DNA from: Porphyridium purpureum
Lineage: Eukaryota
Length of the DNA: 64,000 bases
NCBI GenBank assembly: GCA_008690995.1
Contig: VRMN01000002.1
Location: 1,922,001 to 1,986,000, forward strand
Reading direction: 5' to 3'
The translations under genes were made by a program, and so were the position numbers. Below the pieces are notes generated by a model. The model worked only from the letters and a program-made list of their open reading frames with translations, did not search any database and was not told the origin of the DNA. This document shows, piece after piece, positions 1,488 through 45,128 of this stretch. Position 1 is the stretch's first letter. Each line of letters opens with the position of its first letter.

Positions 1488-4400
1488 ATGAGGTTCTTCG
1501 AGTATGGAACTGTGGCAGTTGCAGCAGGAGCTGGCGGCTTGACGAAGGAGGCTGCCTCGCGCGCGCCGGAATTGGTGGTGGCGTATGAGCAGGGTTTGGT
1601 GTGGGATGGGCGCGATGTCGGCAAGGTGTTTGTGAATGCGCAGCGGATCTGGCCGCAGGGAGGACTGGAGGACGAGCTGCCGAATGTGGAGATCCGGGTC
1701 AAGGTAGAGAGCGAGGATGAGGCGTGGATGCATTGGGGCACGCTCACCAAGTCCACGGGCGCGCAGGAGTGGCGGACACCAGCACCCTTGCTGGGCTCGG
1801 GAATCACCGTCTCGTGCCCCGCGGCAGATGTACACGAGCATGACGCGTGCGCGGCTAGGATCAAACTGCAAAACGCGCAGGAAATGCTGCTCGTCGTGCA
1901 GGGCGCCGCCACAGAAGACGTCGTGGCAGTGCTGTTCTGCATCTTTCTGAAAAAGAGCGACGGACACGAACGCTGGTTCTCCGGGCCAGGTGGAAACGAC
2001 CACAAGATACATACGGGCGATCCAAAGGTGGCTGACGCAGCCGCTGGCGGTGACACAGCCACGCGCATCCTCGAAGGCGAGGCCGGCGAAAGCTGGAGCA
2101 TGCCGTCGCGATTTGGGCTCATCATCGATCTGTGCGGCGGACCGGCGGCCTCGTCGCTAAATGATATGGCGTGGGTCTTTGTCGTGCTGCGATACCATAA
2201 CATGCGCCAGCTTCGATGGTACTCCAAGCACAACTATCAGTCCAAGGATATGGGCCACCTCCTAGATACCTTGTCAAAGCGCGTTACGCAGGTCGCAGCT
2301 CATACTGGGCAGCATCCGCGCACAAAGTACCTCGCGCGCGTCGCCATGAGCTACCTGTCTCGCGGGGGTGGCCAGGCAGAGGCGATTCGTATCGAGATTT
2401 TACACATTATGCGTCGGAACGGCATTAAGGAGGGGCATAGGCCCGGCATTGACGACAAGTTCATCGAGCAGTGGCACCAGAAATTGCACCAACATACCAC
2501 GCGCGACGACATTCACATTTGCAAGGCATACCTTGCATTTCTGCACTCGGGCAACATGGGCGACTTTTGGCACACACTATGGGTCAAAGGAAAACTGACG
2601 CGTGAGGATTTGGCTAGCTGGCCAAATAAGATCACGCATGAGCCGTTCCACTTGCCACAGCTCATCAATGATATGAAGCACTACCTGTGGATTTTACAGA
2701 CTGTTCACGGCGGCGCTGACTTGGGCTTTGCAACCGAGTCGGCGAAATGGGCGCTTGATGGCGAAACCCAAGGTATGTTGTACGACATCATGGCCAATTA
2801 TGACGAGTGGTGGGTGCCTGGGAAGATTGCAGATGTGAGGTTCCGGATCTGCGACGGCCCATTGAAGCATTGCCCGAACGCAGAGCGCGACATCTTACTC
2901 CTTGACGCCGCGCTTGTCGCCGCATTCAAGCACACAACCGAGCGTACAAACTTTAGCGAGCTGCCAAGGGACCCGTTGATCGATATTGCTGACATGGTTC
3001 TGCGTCAGTCTGCGCTGTGCTGGATCGACTCCAGCAGCCCAGAAAGTCTCGGGCGGGAGCTGTGGATAGCGGCAAACGAATGGAGCCAGCTGGTGAAAAA
3101 TAGCGGCGACCGGTCGTCGCCGCGCTGGGCGCTCAAGGCGCTGGCACTTGCCGACAAGATTTCACTGCTGCTAGCAAAGGACGCGTCGGAATTGGACACC
3201 CTTTTCCGCGACAAGACGGTTCAGCTTGCTAAAGTGTCTGGCATCCCGGACAGTTACGTACTCAACTTTACCGAGGAAGTCGTGCGCGCGCAGCCGAGCT
3301 TTGTGCTCTCTTCAATTCTGCGATATCTCACGCCCGTGCTTCGAGACACTGCCGGCGTGGGTCCGTGGAATGTGGTGAGTATGGGCGACAATGCTGGCCG
3401 CACCAGCAGCGCCTGTGCATTGAAAATGGTCTCGGATCTCGCCAACATTCAGGGCGAAGACTTTTCCAAAGCCCCCGTGATTGTCATTGCTGACGGGGTG
3501 GACGGGAATTGTGATATCCCGCTGGGCGTCGAGGCGATCGTGTCAGGTGGCTCGGTTGATATTTTATCCCATGTTGCGATCCGCGCGCGCAATCAGGGCG
3601 TCGTTCTCGTGTGTTGCGACGGAGATACGCTGCACAAGCTACGTGATCCGTTGCTGGAGGCGTCGTCGAGTGGCAATGGTGCGCTCTTTTCCGTTTCGGT
3701 CAATTCAGCCAGCTCGGAAGTTCAGATTTCGGGAGCGACTGCCGGAATTGCGGCTGGAAATGGACCTGGTGCCGATTCTTCGTCTCATGCGAAAGCGTCG
3801 GGCGCAGAGAAAGTATCGATTGCAAAGCCCCTTGCGCTGGATAAGGCGCTCCAGGAGGAACCTCTTTTGGAGCTGGGATCCATGGTGGCTGGGCTGGTCG
3901 GTGGAAAATCATTCTCGCTTCAAGAGATTCGTTCGAAGCTCCCAGACTGGTTGCAAGTCCCCAAATCGTACGCTCTGCCCTTTGGCACGGCCGAGCTGAA
4001 TGCCAAGCTTCTCGGGGTCAAGCAGGTGGTGCTCCCGAATGGAGAGAAGGTGACGGAGGAAGCGCTTCAGCAGGTGCGTGATGAGCTTGAGGCAGATCCG
4101 ACAAACATGTCGGCGCCTGTGAATGTGGCTCTCGCAAAAGTTGCAGCTCAGTTGGTTCCAGAAGACTTGGTTGCGTCGTTACCAGGCGGCATGGCGGCGG
4201 CCGTCGAGACCTTGTATCGAGGGGTGCTTGCCGTTTGGGCGTCAAAGTACACATACCGTGCCACACTTTCACGCCGTGCTCAAAAAATTGCGGACGCGGA
4301 TCTTTACATGGCTGTGCTTCTGCAGCCCGTGGTCAGCGACGTGGCCTACGCTTTTGTGCTCCACACGAAAGATCCGTTGAGTGGAGATGCTGACACTGTG

Positions 4401-4832
4401 TTTGGAGAAGTCGTGGTTGGTATGGGAGAGACGCTCGTGGGGAGCTACCCTGGACGTGCGCTGGCGTTCTCGGCCAGCAAAAGCGGAGGCGGCGTGAAGA
4501 TTCTTTCCTACCCGTCCAAGTTGATCGGATATTTTGCCACGCCTGGCACACTGATGGCTCGCTCAGACAGCAATGGCGAGGACTTGGAGAAGTTTGCAGG
4601 TGCTGGGTTGTACGACTCTGTGGGTGTCGGCTGTATAAAGTCCTGCGCAGTCGATTATGCTCAGAATCGTCTGTTTACGGACGACGCGTTCGTGGATGAG
4701 CTAGTGAGCAAGCTATTGCGGTGTGGTGTCGACGTGGAGAAGGCGATGGGTGGCCAAGTACCACAAGATATCGAAGGATGTGTTGACAGCGCGGGAAACG
4801 TGACGGTTGTACAAACGCGTCCTCAAGTTTAA
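1488..4832 (+). CDS. GWD: Alpha-glucan water dikinase, apparently cytosolic
   Basis: QWHQKLHQHTT.DDI.IC.AYL; phospho-His motif ILSHVAIRARN; C-terminal GETLVG.YPGRA, RSDSNGEDLE.FAGAGLYDS, QDIEG..VQTRPQV. ATG at 1488 after a purine-rich leader; no transit peptide. Confidence 0.93.
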   Translation: MRFFEYGTVAVAAGAGGLTKEAASRAPELVVAYEQGLVWDGRDVGKVFVNAQRIWPQGGLEDELPNVEIRVKVESEDEAWMHWGTLTKSTGAQEWRTPAPLLGSGITVSCPAADVHEHDACAARIKLQNAQEMLLVVQGAATEDVVAVLFCIFLKKSDGHERWFSGPGGNDHKIHTGDPKVADAAAGGDTATRILEGEAGESWSMPSRFGLIIDLCGGPAASSLNDMAWVFVVLRYHNMRQLRWYSKHNYQSKDMGHLLDTLSKRVTQVAAHTGQHPRTKYLARVAMSYLSRGGGQAEAIRIEILHIMRRNGIKEGHRPGIDDKFIEQWHQKLHQHTTRDDIHICKAYLAFLHSGNMGDFWHTLWVKGKLTREDLASWPNKITHEPFHLPQLINDMKHYLWILQTVHGGADLGFATESAKWALDGETQGMLYDIMANYDEWWVPGKIADVRFRICDGPLKHCPNAERDILLLDAALVAAFKHTTERTNFSELPRDPLIDIADMVLRQSALCWIDSSSPESLGRELWIAANEWSQLVKNSGDRSSPRWALKALALADKISLLLAKDASELDTLFRDKTVQLAKVSGIPDSYVLNFTEEVVRAQPSFVLSSILRYLTPVLRDTAGVGPWNVVSMGDNAGRTSSACALKMVSDLANIQGEDFSKAPVIVIADGVDGNCDIPLGVEAIVSGGSVDILSHVAIRARNQGVVLVCCDGDTLHKLRDPLLEASSSGNGALFSVSVNSASSEVQISGATAGIAAGNGPGADSSSHAKASGAEKVSIAKPLALDKALQEEPLLELGSMVAGLVGGKSFSLQEIRSKLPDWLQVPKSYALPFGTAELNAKLLGVKQVVLPNGEKVTEEALQQVRDELEADPTNMSAPVNVALAKVAAQLVPEDLVASLPGGMAAAVETLYRGVLAVWASKYTYRATLSRRAQKIADADLYMAVLLQPVVSDVAYAFVLHTKDPLSGDADTVFGEVVVGMGETLVGSYPGRALAFSASKSGGGVKILSYPSKLIGYFATPGTLMARSDSNGEDLEKFAGAGLYDSVGVGCIKSCAVDYAQNRLFTDDAFVDELVSKLLRCGVDVEKAMGGQVPQDIEGCVDSAGNVTVVQTRPQV

Positions 4833-5079
4833 GGAGATACAAAATGTATGTAATTTGATTATCAGACGTTTCAATACAGGTTATGTACACGATCCTTAAT
4901 TGCTACTTGCCAAAACTATCCCCGATGCGCATGACAAGGCAATCCCCCACCAATTCAGAAGATGTTGCGATTTGGCACGCCTCGTGAGATGGCGCCAGCG
5001 AGGTTACAACGCAGCCAAGATCTCGACGCCAGACGTGATCCAGCGCGTGAGCAGCAAGGCTGGCCTGCGTGCAAGTGTG

Positions 5080-5087
5080 CATATAAG
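5080..5087 (+). promoter_or_regulatory. TATA-like element (CATATAAG) upstream of the coiled-coil gene
   Basis: Lies ~125 nt upstream of ATG 5209 and is followed by an AG-rich leader like other genes in the window. Confidence 0.4.
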
Positions 5088-5208
5088 CGCGAAGGGCGGG
5101 CGCGGTGGCGGTCTGTGTCTAATCTGCCTCGTCCAGAAGTCCAAGCGTGAGCGGCAGGAGCACAGGAAGGGGAGGAGGCAGCAGGTAGGAACGAAGAGAA
5201 GATTGGCC

Positions 5209-5853
5209 ATGGCGGACACGGGCAAGACCGAGTACACGGTGGCGCGTGCGCTCGTGCAGATGAAGATGATTGGAAAGCGCGTCGAGAAGCAGGTCCAGGA
5301 GTTTGAGCCCGTGTGTATTCAGACCGGCGCCAAGCTGGAGCAGTCGATGCAGAACAAGAGCCTGGAGCAGTTCCAGAAGGAGACCAAGGCCGACTGGCAG
5401 TCGCTGATGGACCTGTTGGAGCTGAAGCGCAAGCTCAAGTGCGCAGTGGTGCTCTCGAACGCGACCACGTCGGTTGAGGTGGCCGGCACCACGTACACGG
5501 TAGCCGAGGTGATTGAGCGCAAGGCGCAGATCGAGCTGGAGCGCGAGATGGTGCGCAATCTGCGCGAGAAGTACGCACGCAAGCTGCGACAGGTCGAGAG
5601 CAAGAACACGGAGATGGAGGCCAAGATGATGAAGCTGCTAGAGGCGACGTACGCGAAGCGCGAGTCGCAGCTGAACAAAGAGGACTATGAGCGCATCACT
5701 GGACCTTTCCTGGAGAACAACGAGTCCAAGCTGATTGATCCCATCAGCATCGATGCGAAGCTGCAAGAGTTCGAGAAGCGCATCGAGGAGTTTGAGGCCG
5801 AGTGCGACGTGACGCTGAGCATTTCGAACGCGCGCGCGATCATCTACGTGTAA
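5209..5853 (+). CDS. 214-aa coiled-coil protein, DIP1984/DUF6847-like (prokaryote/phage-type), function unknown
   Basis: ATG in GCCATGG context; very strong G/C-ending codon use. Motifs YTVARAL..K, VVLSNATTSVEVAGTTYTVAEVIERK, LIDPI and EFEAECDVTLSISNA match the pattern I recognise for this family. Coding status is high confidence, family assignment moderate. Confidence 0.7.
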   Translation: MADTGKTEYTVARALVQMKMIGKRVEKQVQEFEPVCIQTGAKLEQSMQNKSLEQFQKETKADWQSLMDLLELKRKLKCAVVLSNATTSVEVAGTTYTVAEVIERKAQIELEREMVRNLREKYARKLRQVESKNTEMEAKMMKLLEATYAKRESQLNKEDYERITGPFLENNESKLIDPISIDAKLQEFEKRIEEFEAECDVTLSISNARAIIYV

Positions 5854-5856
5854 ATG

Positions 5857-6143
5857 GTGGTTGTCAGCACGACAAGACGACCGGCGACACTACGTATCAC
5901 GGACAGATGGCACGCACTCACATAACAGTTCTTTCTGACTGCGGAGAGACGCAACATGTAAAGCAGACCTTTTTTTTTCTGTCTCGTCATCGTCCGGCTG
6001 TGATCTTGAAGCGCCCCCGCTTCTTCGCATTTATCCGCTTAGCTCTCACTCTGGAGCGAATGAAACCATGCTTGAGCAGCGCATGGTGCAATATGGGCTT
6101 TAGGGATGGCTATCCATTCTGCTTTTCGTCTTGGTCAGACCAC
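5857..6143 (+). ncRNA. Candidate structured RNA (~290 nt) starting right after the stop codon (3' UTR element or ncRNA)
   Basis: Closing helix 5857-5862/6138-6143 plus 5871-5880/6126-6136; long helix 5896-5911/5986-6004; hairpins 6008-6023, 6065-6087 and 6103-6120. Folded by eye. Confidence 0.5.
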
Positions 6144-6510
6144 ACACCCAGACCCAACTCACAACCTGCGCGCGGTGGCTGCACGAGCAAGGGCCGCGAA
6201 GGAGCGCATGAGGAGGTACAGTAATAGATGTACAGTGACGTACACCTGGACATGCGCAGTTGTGTACACTTACGCTAGGGATCGATCGCATCCTTATGCG
6301 AATCAAAACGGCGCGCGGCGCGGGGCGCGACGAGGAGAGGAGGGCGAGCGGTTTGGTGTCGTGCCGGCTCGTGGGGAGGAAGAGTGACGAGCGCGGCGGC
6401 TGGTGGTTGAGTGATCGCGGGTGTGGGTGGGTTGGTTGGTTGGTGTGGCGGACGGACGAGCAGGCTTTGGAGATATCGTTGGGTGCTGATCCTCAGCGCA
6501 ACACGTCACG

Positions 6511-8136
6511 ATGAGCAACGCACCGATTGTGGTGCTGAACCCAAATGCAAAGCGCGAGCAGGGGCGCCGCGCGCAGCTGACGAATATTGCGGCGGCCAAG
6601 GCGGTGGGCGATATTATCAGGACGACGCTGGGCCCGCGCGCAATGCTCAAGATGATTCTGGACGCGCAGGGATCGGTCGTACTCACAAATGATGGAAATG
6701 CGATCCTGCGTGAAATCGACGTGCAGCATCCGGCGGCCAAATCGATCATCGAGCTGTCCAAGACGCAGGACGAGGGCGTGGGCGACGGTACTACGTCGGT
6801 CGCCGTGCTGGCGGGCGAGCTGCTCGCCCTCGCGGAGCCGTTCCTGGAACGAAATATTCACCCGACCGTCATCGTGGGCGCGTACTTTCGCGCGCTGGAT
6901 GACGCCGTCAACGCGGCGGAAAGCGCCGCGCTCGTGATCGATCAGGACAACGCCGAAGAGGTCGGCAAGGTGATCGCCTCGTGCCTAGGCACAAAGTTCA
7001 TGAACCGGTGGGCCAAACTCATGGTGCACCTTGCGTTGCAGGCAGTGAAGACAGTGATGGTCAAGACAAACGACCGCATTTCGATTGACTTTAAGAACTA
7101 CGCGAAGGTTGAAAAGATTCCCGGTGGTGAGATCTCGGACTCTGAGGTGCTTGACGGCGTGATCATCAACAAGGACGTGTGCCTGGGCAACATGAAGCGC
7201 AAGATTGAGAACCCGCGCATCATCCTGCTCGACTCGCCGCTTGAATATCGCAAGGGCGACAGCCAGACCAATGTGGAAATTACCAGCGAGGCAGACTGGG
7301 GTCGATTGCTCAGGCTAGAGGAAGAGTTTGTGGAAAAGGCAGTCGCGGATCTGCTCAAGCACAAGCCAGATCTGGTCATCACCGAGAAGGGCATCTCAGA
7401 CCTCGCGCTCCATCTCCTCCAAAAGGCCGGCGTGGCGTGCATCAGGCGACTGCGCAAGACAGACAATAATCGCATTGCGCGCGCAACCGGCGCAGTGATT
7501 GTGAATCGCCCGGAGGAGCTCAAAGAGAGCGATGTCGGCAGCGCAGGTCTCTTCGAGGTACGAAAGATTGGCGACGAGTACTTTACGTACATTGTGCAGT
7601 GTGCGGCGCCCAAAGCGTGCTCGATTGTGCTGCGCGGCGGCAGCAAGGACGTGCTGAACGAGATTGAGCGCAACCTCATGGATGCCATGTGTGTAGCGCG
7701 CAACGTTATGCTGAACCCAAAACTGGTGCCCGGCGGCGGCGCGATTGAAATGACCGTCAGTCAGGTATTGGCCGCAAAAGCCAAGACGATTCAGGGCACC
7801 AGCCAAGCGCCCTATGCCGCGGTTGGCGAAGCGCTCGAGGTGATTCCGCGCACGCTTGCCGAAAACTGTGGTGCAAACGTGATTCGCGTGCTCACACAAT
7901 TACGCGCCAAGCACGCGGACGGTGCGAACACGAGCTGGGGCATCGACGGAAACAAGGGCGTGGTGACAGACATGGTTACGCTGGGCGTATGGGAGCCGCT
8001 GGAGGTCAAAGTGCAGACCTTGAAGACGGCCGTCGAGGCCGCTGCTATGCTTTTGCGCATCGACGACATTGTGAGCGGCATCAGCAAAAAGAAGGAGCAC
8101 GGCGGGCCCAACATGGATCAGGATGACTTGGACTAG
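6511..8136 (+). CDS. CCT3: T-complex protein 1 subunit gamma
   Basis: RTTLGPRAMLKM, TNDGNAILREI, GDGTTS, YAKVEKIPGG, RRLRKTDNNRIARA. Confidence 0.97.
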   Translation: MSNAPIVVLNPNAKREQGRRAQLTNIAAAKAVGDIIRTTLGPRAMLKMILDAQGSVVLTNDGNAILREIDVQHPAAKSIIELSKTQDEGVGDGTTSVAVLAGELLALAEPFLERNIHPTVIVGAYFRALDDAVNAAESAALVIDQDNAEEVGKVIASCLGTKFMNRWAKLMVHLALQAVKTVMVKTNDRISIDFKNYAKVEKIPGGEISDSEVLDGVIINKDVCLGNMKRKIENPRIILLDSPLEYRKGDSQTNVEITSEADWGRLLRLEEEFVEKAVADLLKHKPDLVITEKGISDLALHLLQKAGVACIRRLRKTDNNRIARATGAVIVNRPEELKESDVGSAGLFEVRKIGDEYFTYIVQCAAPKACSIVLRGGSKDVLNEIERNLMDAMCVARNVMLNPKLVPGGGAIEMTVSQVLAAKAKTIQGTSQAPYAAVGEALEVIPRTLAENCGANVIRVLTQLRAKHADGANTSWGIDGNKGVVTDMVTLGVWEPLEVKVQTLKTAVEAAAMLLRIDDIVSGISKKKEHGGPNMDQDDLD

Positions 8137-42122: not shown

Positions 42123-43788
42123 ACTCTCGTGCCTCACCATAATTTTCGAACAAAATCGTTCCGCTCTCCGCGTCTCCCTCTGCTTCTTTCGCAACGCCTC
42201 CATACTTCTTCCGTCCCGCTCAATCGTAATATGCGCGAGCCGCCGAATGCCTCGACGTGCTCCTCGCTGTGCACAGCGCTGTGCAGGCTTGCGTATGGCC
42301 GTGGCCGCGGCCGCACTTTCCACCGGACCGCGTGCGGAATGCGGCGATGCGCTCCACGGCAAATGACGCGGCGCGCTTTGCTCCAACGGCCTTTGCCAAC
42401 TGCCACCGTGCCCGTTCCAGCGCTTTGCCAGAGCCATTAGCCGCAGCTGCGGCGCGTATCCGTACACGGTTCCAGAAACGCGTGCTCGCCCCGCGCACCA
42501 AGAAACAGCCGCGCGCGGAAATCATATATCAAAACAGCCCGTTTTTATGGGAAACGGCGCGGTGTGCGCGCAGTAAGCGTGCATGACGCGCTTGGAACAT
42601 GCAGCAAGGTGTACCTCTGCAGGGTGTGGGTACAGTTGGAACGGACTGTACTTTTAGCAGAACCGGGCGCCAGCTGGACGCGCTTGGCTGGTGCCTGGCT
42701 GGGAGCAGGCGGGTAAGGGCTGACTGGGAGCCTGAGGCAGAGGACGAGCTGGTTTGTGGAATGGAAAGAAGCAGCAGGGCGACAGCGCGGCGCTGCACGA
42801 TCATTGACAGGATGGACAGACTGGTGTGAATGGTCTGGCGCCGGTTATAAAAGCACCGCTTGCATTGCCCGGGCAAGAGTGGAGGCCGGCATTGGTATGA
42901 TCGATCACTGCGGAGAAGGGGAAGCCATATTCTGCTTTGGTCTGGACAGGACCCCGGGCAGGGCCCGGGCAGGGCCTGGGCAGCATGCGTGCTTCCTGAG
43001 TGACGAGAGGAAGGTCAGCTTGGGAATATCGGTCAGAGAAAGGTAAAAGGAGGTGATGTGAGTAGCTGGGCGTACCGAAGACGGTGCGGGAACCCCCCAG
43101 ACAGCGCGAAGCATGCAAATCGACGAGGTCTTTCATCAACGTGCAGCAAATGAAGGAACTGTTGCTTCCATCAACACAGCTCATGTTGACAATGTTCTTT
43201 GAAAGATCAGCGTTCACACGTTCAAGATTCAAATGTCACAGCCATGGGCGAGACGGAACGATCCCGTCTTGCCGCGGCGCCCTCAAAGCTCAAGAAGTGT
43301 TCAGAATCTCAAGCTTCAGCGCGTAAGGCTCGTTCAAATCCCAGGTCTACAGTGATGCGGAGTCTCCTTGTCCTCCGCGCGTGCACTGCTGGGCAGCGCT
43401 GTCTGGGTTTCTGCATCGTCTTGGGTACGTCGCAGCTACTCGCCATCCCCTCCTTTTCTTCTCTATCCACCTGCCGTTTCTCTCTTTCTGTTTCTGCACA
43501 CTTAGGATTATACTCCAACGGTAAATACTCCGCTCTTCTCGCACACGCGCGCAAGTCATTGCCTCATTCGTCCTTGGTTTCTTTCCTTGCTCACGCCATT
43601 TCTCCGTTCACTTTTGCAGTTGAACAACCGCGATACCTCACCCGTTATCGAGAACACTGTACCTTACCCACCAACCTGGCTGACGTACGTCAACGCATAT
43701 CGCCATATCCGCCATTACCATTTTATATCATCACGCGCTTTAAGCGAGCTCTCTCTATGTGAATTAATTAACAGCGCTTCTCTTACGA

Positions 43789-44140: not shown

Positions 44141-44423
44141 GGGCGCGGTAGGAGCGAGGCGGAAGCGAGGCGCAGACAGGAAGCGGCGGGAGGTGGAGAG
44201 TGGAGCGGTAAGGGAACGTGGAGGGGTAACAACGGAACGGAGGAAGGATAAGAGCAGCGCGCGGTGGGGGAGTTGTGGAAAGAGGAAGAGTGGTGGTGCG
44301 GTGGCGGACGGTGAAGAGTGTTGCGATAAGAAGGGTGGGAAAGTGAAGGAGGGAAGCGCGCGAGAGAAGGGAGAGGAACGGCCTAAAGGAGGTACGGGTG
44401 AGAGGGCGACGCGCGCAGAGAGG

Positions 44424-45128
44424 ATGATGGCGTGTGAAGCGGGATTTGTAGGGAGTGGACTTGTGGGGGCGGGCGCGGCGCAGGCGCGAGCTGCGCGCGG
44501 CGTGGATGTCGCGCGTGCGCGCGGAGGAGCGGCCGTAGCCGTTCCGAGGGTGTCGCGTGCCCGGCTCATGATGACGACCACGAGTAAGCCCGAGCTGGAC
44601 GTGCAGAAGCAGCAGCTGGATGTGAAGGAGCTGGCGCGCGGCATTGAGCGCTCGCAACTATCGTACCGCGACGTGGATTGCGACAAGTGGTCCATCGAGC
44701 TGTTGTACGATGGCGCGTGCTCACTGTGCACGGCCGAGGCGAACTTTTTGATGAAGAGGGACACGGGTCGTGGAAACATCAAGTTTGTGGACATTTCAAG
44801 CATAGAGTATGACGCATCCGAACATCACAACGTTTCTTACGAACAAGCCATGGGTCGCCTGCACGCCATCAAGCGCGACGGTACGATCATCACCGGTATC
44901 GATGTCTTCCGTGAGACGTACGCCGCGATTGGGCTTCTGTGGGTCTATCACCTTATGCAGAACCCTGTGGTAGGCTGGATGGCCGAGCGAGCTTACGATA
45001 TCTGGGCGGAAAACAGGTTACGAATCACAGGGAGGGGAGAGCTTGCAGATATCATTCGAGAGCGCGAGCGGCTGCTCGAAGAAAAGAACGAATCGGAGTG
45101 CGAGGATACGTGCAACATTGATTGGTGA
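44424..45128 (+). CDS. DCC1/DUF393 thiol-disulfide oxidoreductase, plastid-targeted
   Basis: LLYDGACSLC (DxxCxxC), FVDIS...Y, AMGRLH, YDIWA..RL.ITGR; transit-like MMACEAGFV. Confidence 0.9.
   Translation: MMACEAGFVGSGLVGAGAAQARAARGVDVARARGGAAVAVPRVSRARLMMTTTSKPELDVQKQQLDVKELARGIERSQLSYRDVDCDKWSIELLYDGACSLCTAEANFLMKRDTGRGNIKFVDISSIEYDASEHHNVSYEQAMGRLHAIKRDGTIITGIDVFRETYAAIGLLWVYHLMQNPVVGWMAERAYDIWAENRLRITGRGELADIIRERERLLEEKNESECEDTCNIDW

Follow-up and report, generated by a model that had tools for sequence, protein, structure and literature searches.

The ORF at positions 5209-5853 of a 64,000-nt stretch of Porphyridium purpureum DNA (contig VRMN01000002.1, positions 1,922,001 to 1,986,000; hereafter the window) was found to encode a new eukaryotic member of the phage protein family phrog_1491, a distant fold relative of DUF6847. 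Genes of this family are tied to a structured non-coding RNA, and both partners have been kept in the alga, where both are strongly transcribed. This tie is the decisive feature of the system and was missing from the sequence-only reading, which had described the gene product as an internally duplicated, horizontally acquired scaffold protein. Protein and RNA probably constitute an ancient ribonucleoprotein, acquired horizontally from a bacterium or phage, in which protein subunits would bind the repeats of the RNA at a 7-nt pitch. Such a complex has apparently not been described before.

These data expose an unannotated structured RNA in phage T5 and its relatives, and provide a testable partner for hundreds of phage genes whose family is mislabelled. 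They also represent a rare apparent case of a prokaryotic non-coding RNA and its protein having moved to a eukaryotic nucleus and been kept after gene separation. RNA homology this deep between domains is seldom seen beyond rRNA, tRNA, SRP, RNase P and Y RNA. Both systems are tractable, T5 in E. coli and Porphyridium in culture.

Table 1. Features of the protein gene and of its partner RNA (positions in the window)
Feature	Position	Strand	Remarks
Protein-gene mRNA	5139..5979	+	start ~5139, poly(A) ~5979 (RNA reads)
CDS, 214 aa	5209..5853	+	phrog_1491 / T5.085-like helical protein with two-fold internal repeat; phrog_1491 E 3.3e-51
Repeat-1 end motif, beta-hairpin and repeat-2 start motif	5446..5523	+	invariant N84 (repeat-1 end), invariant K105 (repeat-2 start)
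Repeat-2 end motif	5812..5850	+	invariant N207
Partner-RNA transcript, non-coding, polyadenylated	42967..43540	+	poly(A) at 43540; 5' end approximate
Long outer stem extending P1	43049..43453	+	fold z-score -8.1 of the region, largely due to this stem; longer than in examined prokaryotic copies
RNA core	43096..43407	+	P1 43096-43107/43396-43407, 12/12 pairs
P2	43111-43116/43379-43384	+	6/6 pairs
Predicted H-type pseudoknot	43123..43156	+	3/3 and 7/7 pairs; same place as the prokaryotic one recognised by eye
7-nt array	43198..43322	+	6 + 5 U-Y-A-type units, hairpin inserted between
Pseudoknot helix	43340-43344/43389-43393	+	5/5 pairs

The protein gene, its fold and its origin

The gene is flanked by those of an alpha-glucan water dikinase and CCT3. 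Homolog starts agree with the ORF start at 5209, a TATA-like motif is present at 5082, 5' of the mRNA, and the mRNA of the upstream dikinase is distinct, with its poly(A) site at 4899. Since reads place the mRNA between about 5139 and 5979, the extended and fused gene models found in databases are wrong: a 353-aa model with an N-terminal extension (P0001) and a fusion with the dikinase (P0175) are contradicted by the transcript start and the dikinase poly(A) site. The record KAA8497257.1 (window 1488-5853) joins the dikinase to the protein gene, for which reads give separate transcripts.

Third positions had been claimed to be at least as biased as those of CCT3, with high expression as a corollary, and both claims were borne out. 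GC3 was 0.877 for the ORF against 0.746 for CCT3, the highest value among the listed ATG ORFs of at least 150 aa in the window. Relative to the 3' portion of CCT3, read depth in the three raw RNA runs was 11.8x, 19.5x and 23.4x, and relative to the 3' portion of the dikinase it was 4-16x; these ratios may sum two gene copies and so be up to 2x too high. Two accessions encode the identical 214 aa and differ in their upstream sequence, and at window position 5933, 37-124 reads per run diverge into one consistent alternative 3' end. Because of these two observations a second copy of the gene is probably present outside the window; they may also reflect alleles rather than a second copy.

In the AlphaFold model of the protein (mean pLDDT 95.6), a predicted strand-helix-helix-strand fold occurs twice, with E8-10, H11-31, H52-86 and E88-91 in the first half and E94-97, H98-150, H157-171, H181-209 and E211-213 in the second. 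The four motifs of the proposed two-fold repeat were located at residues 9-19/96-105 and 80-91/202-214. The internal duplication is genuine, but could be detected only in part: apart from the repeated fold, the S-N-A-x-T ends of both halves matched each other in profile-profile comparison (probability 78%, E 1.9e-5), whereas the YTVA starts reached 10% and the whole halves 25%. Residues N84 and N207 were invariant in 150 of 150 homologs. Basic residues were conserved at R13, K19, R24, K27, K73, K77 and K105; with a net charge of -2, equal to the family median, the protein is not basic overall. As the sequence-only reading had stated, neither signal peptide nor TM segment was seen upon inspection of the sequence and model.

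For the protein, no significant match was obtained in sequence searches of Pfam, NCBIfam and PDB, and the ESM Atlas returned clusters without names, DUF6847 appearing only at 0.86. The match to phrog_1491 spans the full length (residues 6-213 on profile positions 2-208 of 211; E value in Table 1), and members of this family, which is labelled 'tail fiber protein', share length and conserved motifs with the algal protein. They differ in gene arrangement, since the RNA lies directly behind the gene in phages, whereas the alga has a nuclear gene and an unlinked RNA. The family was detected in 728 of 50,697 phage records and in 16 of 72,556 plasmids and comprised 2,068 representative proteins; it was scarce in Bacillota (4 of 401 genomes).

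Named eukaryotic homologs were from Gracilariopsis chorda and Gracilaria domingensis (Gracilariales). In a 42-row tree (LG+G4), these, the window protein and eight unnamed proteins formed one clade (100/99), which joined a seven-row clade containing two proteins named after Ca. Sericytochromatia (99/98). A quick tree of 87 rows under a mixture model gave 96 for the algal clade and 86 for the Sericytochromatia sister relation; both trees are unrooted, their rows were drawn from top matches, and most rows in the algal and sister clades are unnamed. This topology suggests a likely scenario of a single old gain from a bacterium or one of its phages, followed by vertical descent in red algae, the transfer likely predating the Porphyridium-Gracilariales divergence. 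Of the donors proposed earlier for an old and ameliorated transfer, a bacterium or phage finds support in the phrog_1491 match, the trees and GC3, whereas a giant virus does not, as the sole giant-virus-labelled contig with the gene (L173) encodes a protein of 26% identity placed far from the algal clade. On this contig, labelled as a giant-virus MAG, gene and RNA are both present (3884-4799), and it may be a fragment of phage or bacterial DNA assigned to the wrong bin. One homolog of the algal clade (P0045, from a 4-member cluster) has scrambled N- and C-termini and resembles a decayed copy.

A structured RNA behind the prokaryotic genes

All four annotated phage records displayed an empty gap of 370-480 bp 3' of the gene, phage T5 having one of 360 bp, and the RNA was without annotation in the five phage records examined. 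The gap contains a conserved element of about 300 nt (range about 270-400 nt) which, in prokaryotic loci, begins 4-85 nt past the stop codon, in the orientation of the gene. From 5' to 3', the element consists of a helix closing its ends (P1), GAA, a second helix (P2), a probable H-type pseudoknot, a variable region, a 7-nt array, AAAUC, and a 5-bp helix that crosses P2, forming a pseudoknot, and ends in GGCUG beside P1. Short motifs at the helix junctions are invariant, namely GAA after P1, and AAAUC before and GC after the pseudoknot helix.

Covariation was evaluated on 47 sequences, the H-type pseudoknot being recognised by eye and left out of the count. In this set 90% of the cells pair and 23 of 24 pairs vary on both sides, for a score of 0.85 against 0.23 in shuffled and at most 0.15 in slid alignments. 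The paired fraction amounted to 97% for P1, 71% for P2 and 96% for the pseudoknot helix, in sequences that were hand-picked and whose boundaries were set using P1 complementarity, which favours P1. The array comprises about 7 + 5 seven-base units of U-Y-A type, whose U and A are nearly invariant, and the autocorrelation peak fell on a period of 7 or 14 in 65 of 72 distinct loci. A coding role for these repeats was rejected, a stop-free frame being present in only 15 of 72 arrays.

Searches of Rfam 15 retrieved only tRNAs in four phage loci and no score near the gathering level for the Metabacillus and algal copies. By eye, tRNA-like arms were noticed within the variable region in six loci (L008, L013, L018, L031, L062 and L068). 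The unannotated T5 copy lies between T5.085 and T5.084 (L177 9147-9318, minus strand, 63.6 bits). The stable RNA rnaX of T5, of unknown function (L177 6849-7567), is a separate site.

Coupling of protein and RNA is near-obligate in prokaryotes. Of 96 protein loci, 93 had a match to the RNA model R1 just 3' of the gene; 40 of these loci served to build R1, many are near-copies, and two of the three misses lack downstream DNA. R1 was positive in all 14 further loci, including T5, 13 of which were picked from a set of 80, with one RNA 1.3 kb from the gene; in three more loci it was strong in two and weak in one. A match was also obtained in a Deinococcus plasmid, and each of three bacterial genomes held one RNA copy. 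When the scan started from the RNA, 45 of 120 pattern matches were RNA-like, and the protein was present in all 30 of these with 1 kb of upstream DNA. It was found in none of the 75 matches that were not RNA-like, about 35 of which have too little upstream DNA to tell.

Clustering of the neighbours of the 96 loci revealed no constant third gene. Of 80 viral loci, 51 had a tRNA gene within their 3-kb flanks; none of nine bacterial or metagenome loci had one nearby. In PVP-SE1, Bcp1, LIBA2945 and T5, the protein gene is part of the tRNA region or adjoins it.

The RNA in the alga

No repeats, period of 7 or Rfam match were detected 3' of the algal gene (4800-6600). The algal RNA was found 37 kb away, on a transcript unlinked to that of the protein gene, adjoined by a sigma-70 gene and a DCC1-like gene and preceded by a TATA-like motif at 42846. 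R1 matched in the window at 43197-43242 and 43283-43409 (E 0.023 each), and a full-length profile gave an E value of 3e-6 (21.3 bits, compared with at most 2.3 in 30 shuffles). A structure descriptor had a single match in the window; of 60 shuffles, 18 were matched by its loose form and one by its strict form. Covariance-model (CM) scores alone are weak in the alga. P1, P2, the pseudoknot helix, the junction motifs and the 7-nt array occur in the prokaryotic order (Table 1), and among them P1, GAA and P2, as well as the 5' pseudoknot, are features absent from R1. The algal repeats are degenerate (lag-7 autocorrelation 0.31-0.40), and some phage copies likewise have an insertion where a hairpin splits the algal array.

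The depth of the algal RNA was 0.5-0.8x that of the protein mRNA and 7-16x that of CCT3. Contig depths in run X6 (9891 for the RNA vs 119 for the gene) are suggestive only, contig depth being a poor measure. Reads differed from the window by two substitutions and one insertion in 43049-43453, against 10 differences in 43541-43763. An ORF overlapping the RNA (43244-43762) was discarded as a gene, given its lack of Pfam match, its GC3 of 0.50 and its extension beyond the poly(A) site. Another X6 contig (1,669 nt, depth 1,588) matches 43121-43246 in reverse and continues with at least 255 unrelated bases, which suggests a chimera or a related sequence. Two plus-strand transcription blocks (44198-44466, and 44538 onward) lie upstream of and within the DCC1-like ORF, suggesting that this gene starts later than 44424 or that a short separate transcript exists there.

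Putative function and comparison with known systems

In the ribonucleoprotein that we propose, multiple copies of the protein, whose two ends are pseudo-symmetric, would bind the single-stranded repeats, with one U-Y-A unit per binding site. The repeats would be contacted by the conserved basic residues close to the duplicated end motifs. The conserved AAAUC/GGCUG core would be held by P1, P2 and the pseudoknot. As the two genes are separated in the alga, the RNA would act there in trans, apart from its protein gene. Since phage copies mostly sit among tRNA genes, the complex could conceivably act on tRNA or another RNA involved in translation, a target offered here as a tentative guess; the tRNA regions of phages gather many unrelated genes. 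As to its history, a scenario with slightly better than even chances is that of a ribonucleoprotein class spread by large lytic phages, including T5, that would have entered red algae as a two-gene system at about the origin of the group. The RNA would have been rebuilt as a polyadenylated nuclear lncRNA, keeping since then a pseudoknotted, possibly catalytic core and a 7-nt protein-counting array; the algal RNA is known from one alga only, and its joint inheritance is shown for P. purpureum alone.

Another possible division of roles, which we consider unlikely, is one in which the RNA does the work, as a ribozyme or as a scaffold built on an RNase P-like core, aided by the protein as chaperone or cofactor. 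The helices of RNase P and MRP are ordered as P1, P2 and a pseudoknot helix adjoining the 3' strand of P1, an arrangement that the element described here resembles, and invariant short motifs at helix junctions would suit an active RNA. Moreover, a truncated homolog (P0091) bears the automatic name 'RNase P subunit RPR2'. However, this name is carried by one fragment only, the algal and Metabacillus copies had no RNase P or MRP match in Rfam at E values up to 10, and a specificity domain would not fit.

Strict pairing might also be explained by a toxin and its RNA antitoxin, the repeat RNA neutralising a toxic protein. In type III systems such as ToxIN, CptIN and TenpIN, a protein gene adjoins an RNA with repeats and pseudoknots, with antitoxin repeats upstream and units of 30-60 nt. 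Repeats and pseudoknots, near-obligate co-occurrence both ways and presence across phages and plasmids are all in agreement with such a system, but the RNA considered here is located downstream with units of 7 nt. Order, repeat length and protein fold differ, and no type III system was matched in Pfam, NCBIfam or Rfam. In addition, Pfam, NCBIfam, PDB and structure searches yielded no nuclease or toxin family or fold, the conserved residues appear structural or basic rather than catalytic, and a eukaryote retains both parts, unlinked and highly expressed. These differences make a toxin-antitoxin function quite improbable.

It is very unlikely that the protein acts by itself as an oligomeric scaffold, as the sequence-only reading had proposed, with the algal RNA match being incidental or a relic. 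Long helices, pseudo-symmetry and the weak algal CM scores speak for this, but every helix pairs in the algal RNA, which is abundant and shows few strain differences, and protein and RNA are strictly paired in prokaryotes. Slightly less probable still is a cis-acting 3' UTR, bound by the protein for regulation of its own mRNA. The location of the prokaryotic element shortly past the stop codon and on the same strand would fit, but the algal mRNA stops at 5979 without it. As the algal element has a transcript separate from that mRNA, it works in trans at least there. Finally, a phage tail fibre is hardly credible, the label of phrog_1491 and of many RefSeq records being unsupported in view of genes located in or beside tRNA regions, an all-helical model with no fibre match, and family members in bacterial chromosomes and algae.

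The proposed ribonucleoprotein may be compared with other RNAs and protein-RNA pairs. Ro60-Y RNA is a protein and non-coding RNA pair common to bacteria, phages and eukaryotes, and TRAP is an oligomer of which each subunit reads one short spaced repeat; neither has a sequence or fold relation to the algal protein, and the analogy is one of mechanism only. GOLLD and OLE are large phage-associated RNAs of a kind like ROOL, with unknown function. The RNA described here differs from all three by its shorter length, fixed upstream protein gene, 7-nt array, eukaryotic copy and lack of Rfam match. ROOL RNA is structured and often located near phage tRNA genes, according to the available part of one report (PMC12191101). 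The listings and abstract starts returned by a full-text literature search described neither the RNA nor the protein-RNA pair; most subscription journals and supplementary motif lists, outside this scope, could hold the RNA. Among the reports retrieved, the portions at hand deal with a septicolysin-like transfer into Malassezia (10.1101/2020.01.28.923367), with two RNAs of about 100 nt in phage PAK_P3, a size different from that of the RNA here (PMC4933390), and with other RNAs (10.64898/2026.09.22.753630).

The likeness to DIP1984/DUF6847 suggested by the sequence-only reading is a weak structural one and does not extend to family membership. DUF6847 (PF20935; PDB 3kdq, which we take to be DIP1984) was the top structural match (Foldseek probability 1.0, E 0.06, TM 0.48/0.64). 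VIA, run on the matches of Foldseek, gave a Z of 10.4 for 3kdq, below the value of about 13 under which the tool advises caution for helical proteins, with an rmsd of 5.7 and 152 aligned of 153 residues (next row 7.8). DUF6847 proteins have about 150 aa compared with 210 aa in the family of the algal protein, which did not reach the Pfam cut-off of 27 bits (no match at E up to 1). Profile-profile probability was 27%, and two of 150 homologs matched DUF6847, weakly (best E 0.0016). R1 had no match behind 15 DUF6847 loci. DUF6847 genes in Bacillota have their own, different conserved downstream element, and pairing with RNAs may be a general trait of the wider fold family. This element, without Rfam match, lies about 20-260 nt past the stop codon. 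Motifs near its 3' end were common to 11 of 11 aligned loci (L302-L312, L317), the last of these motifs being degenerate in L317.
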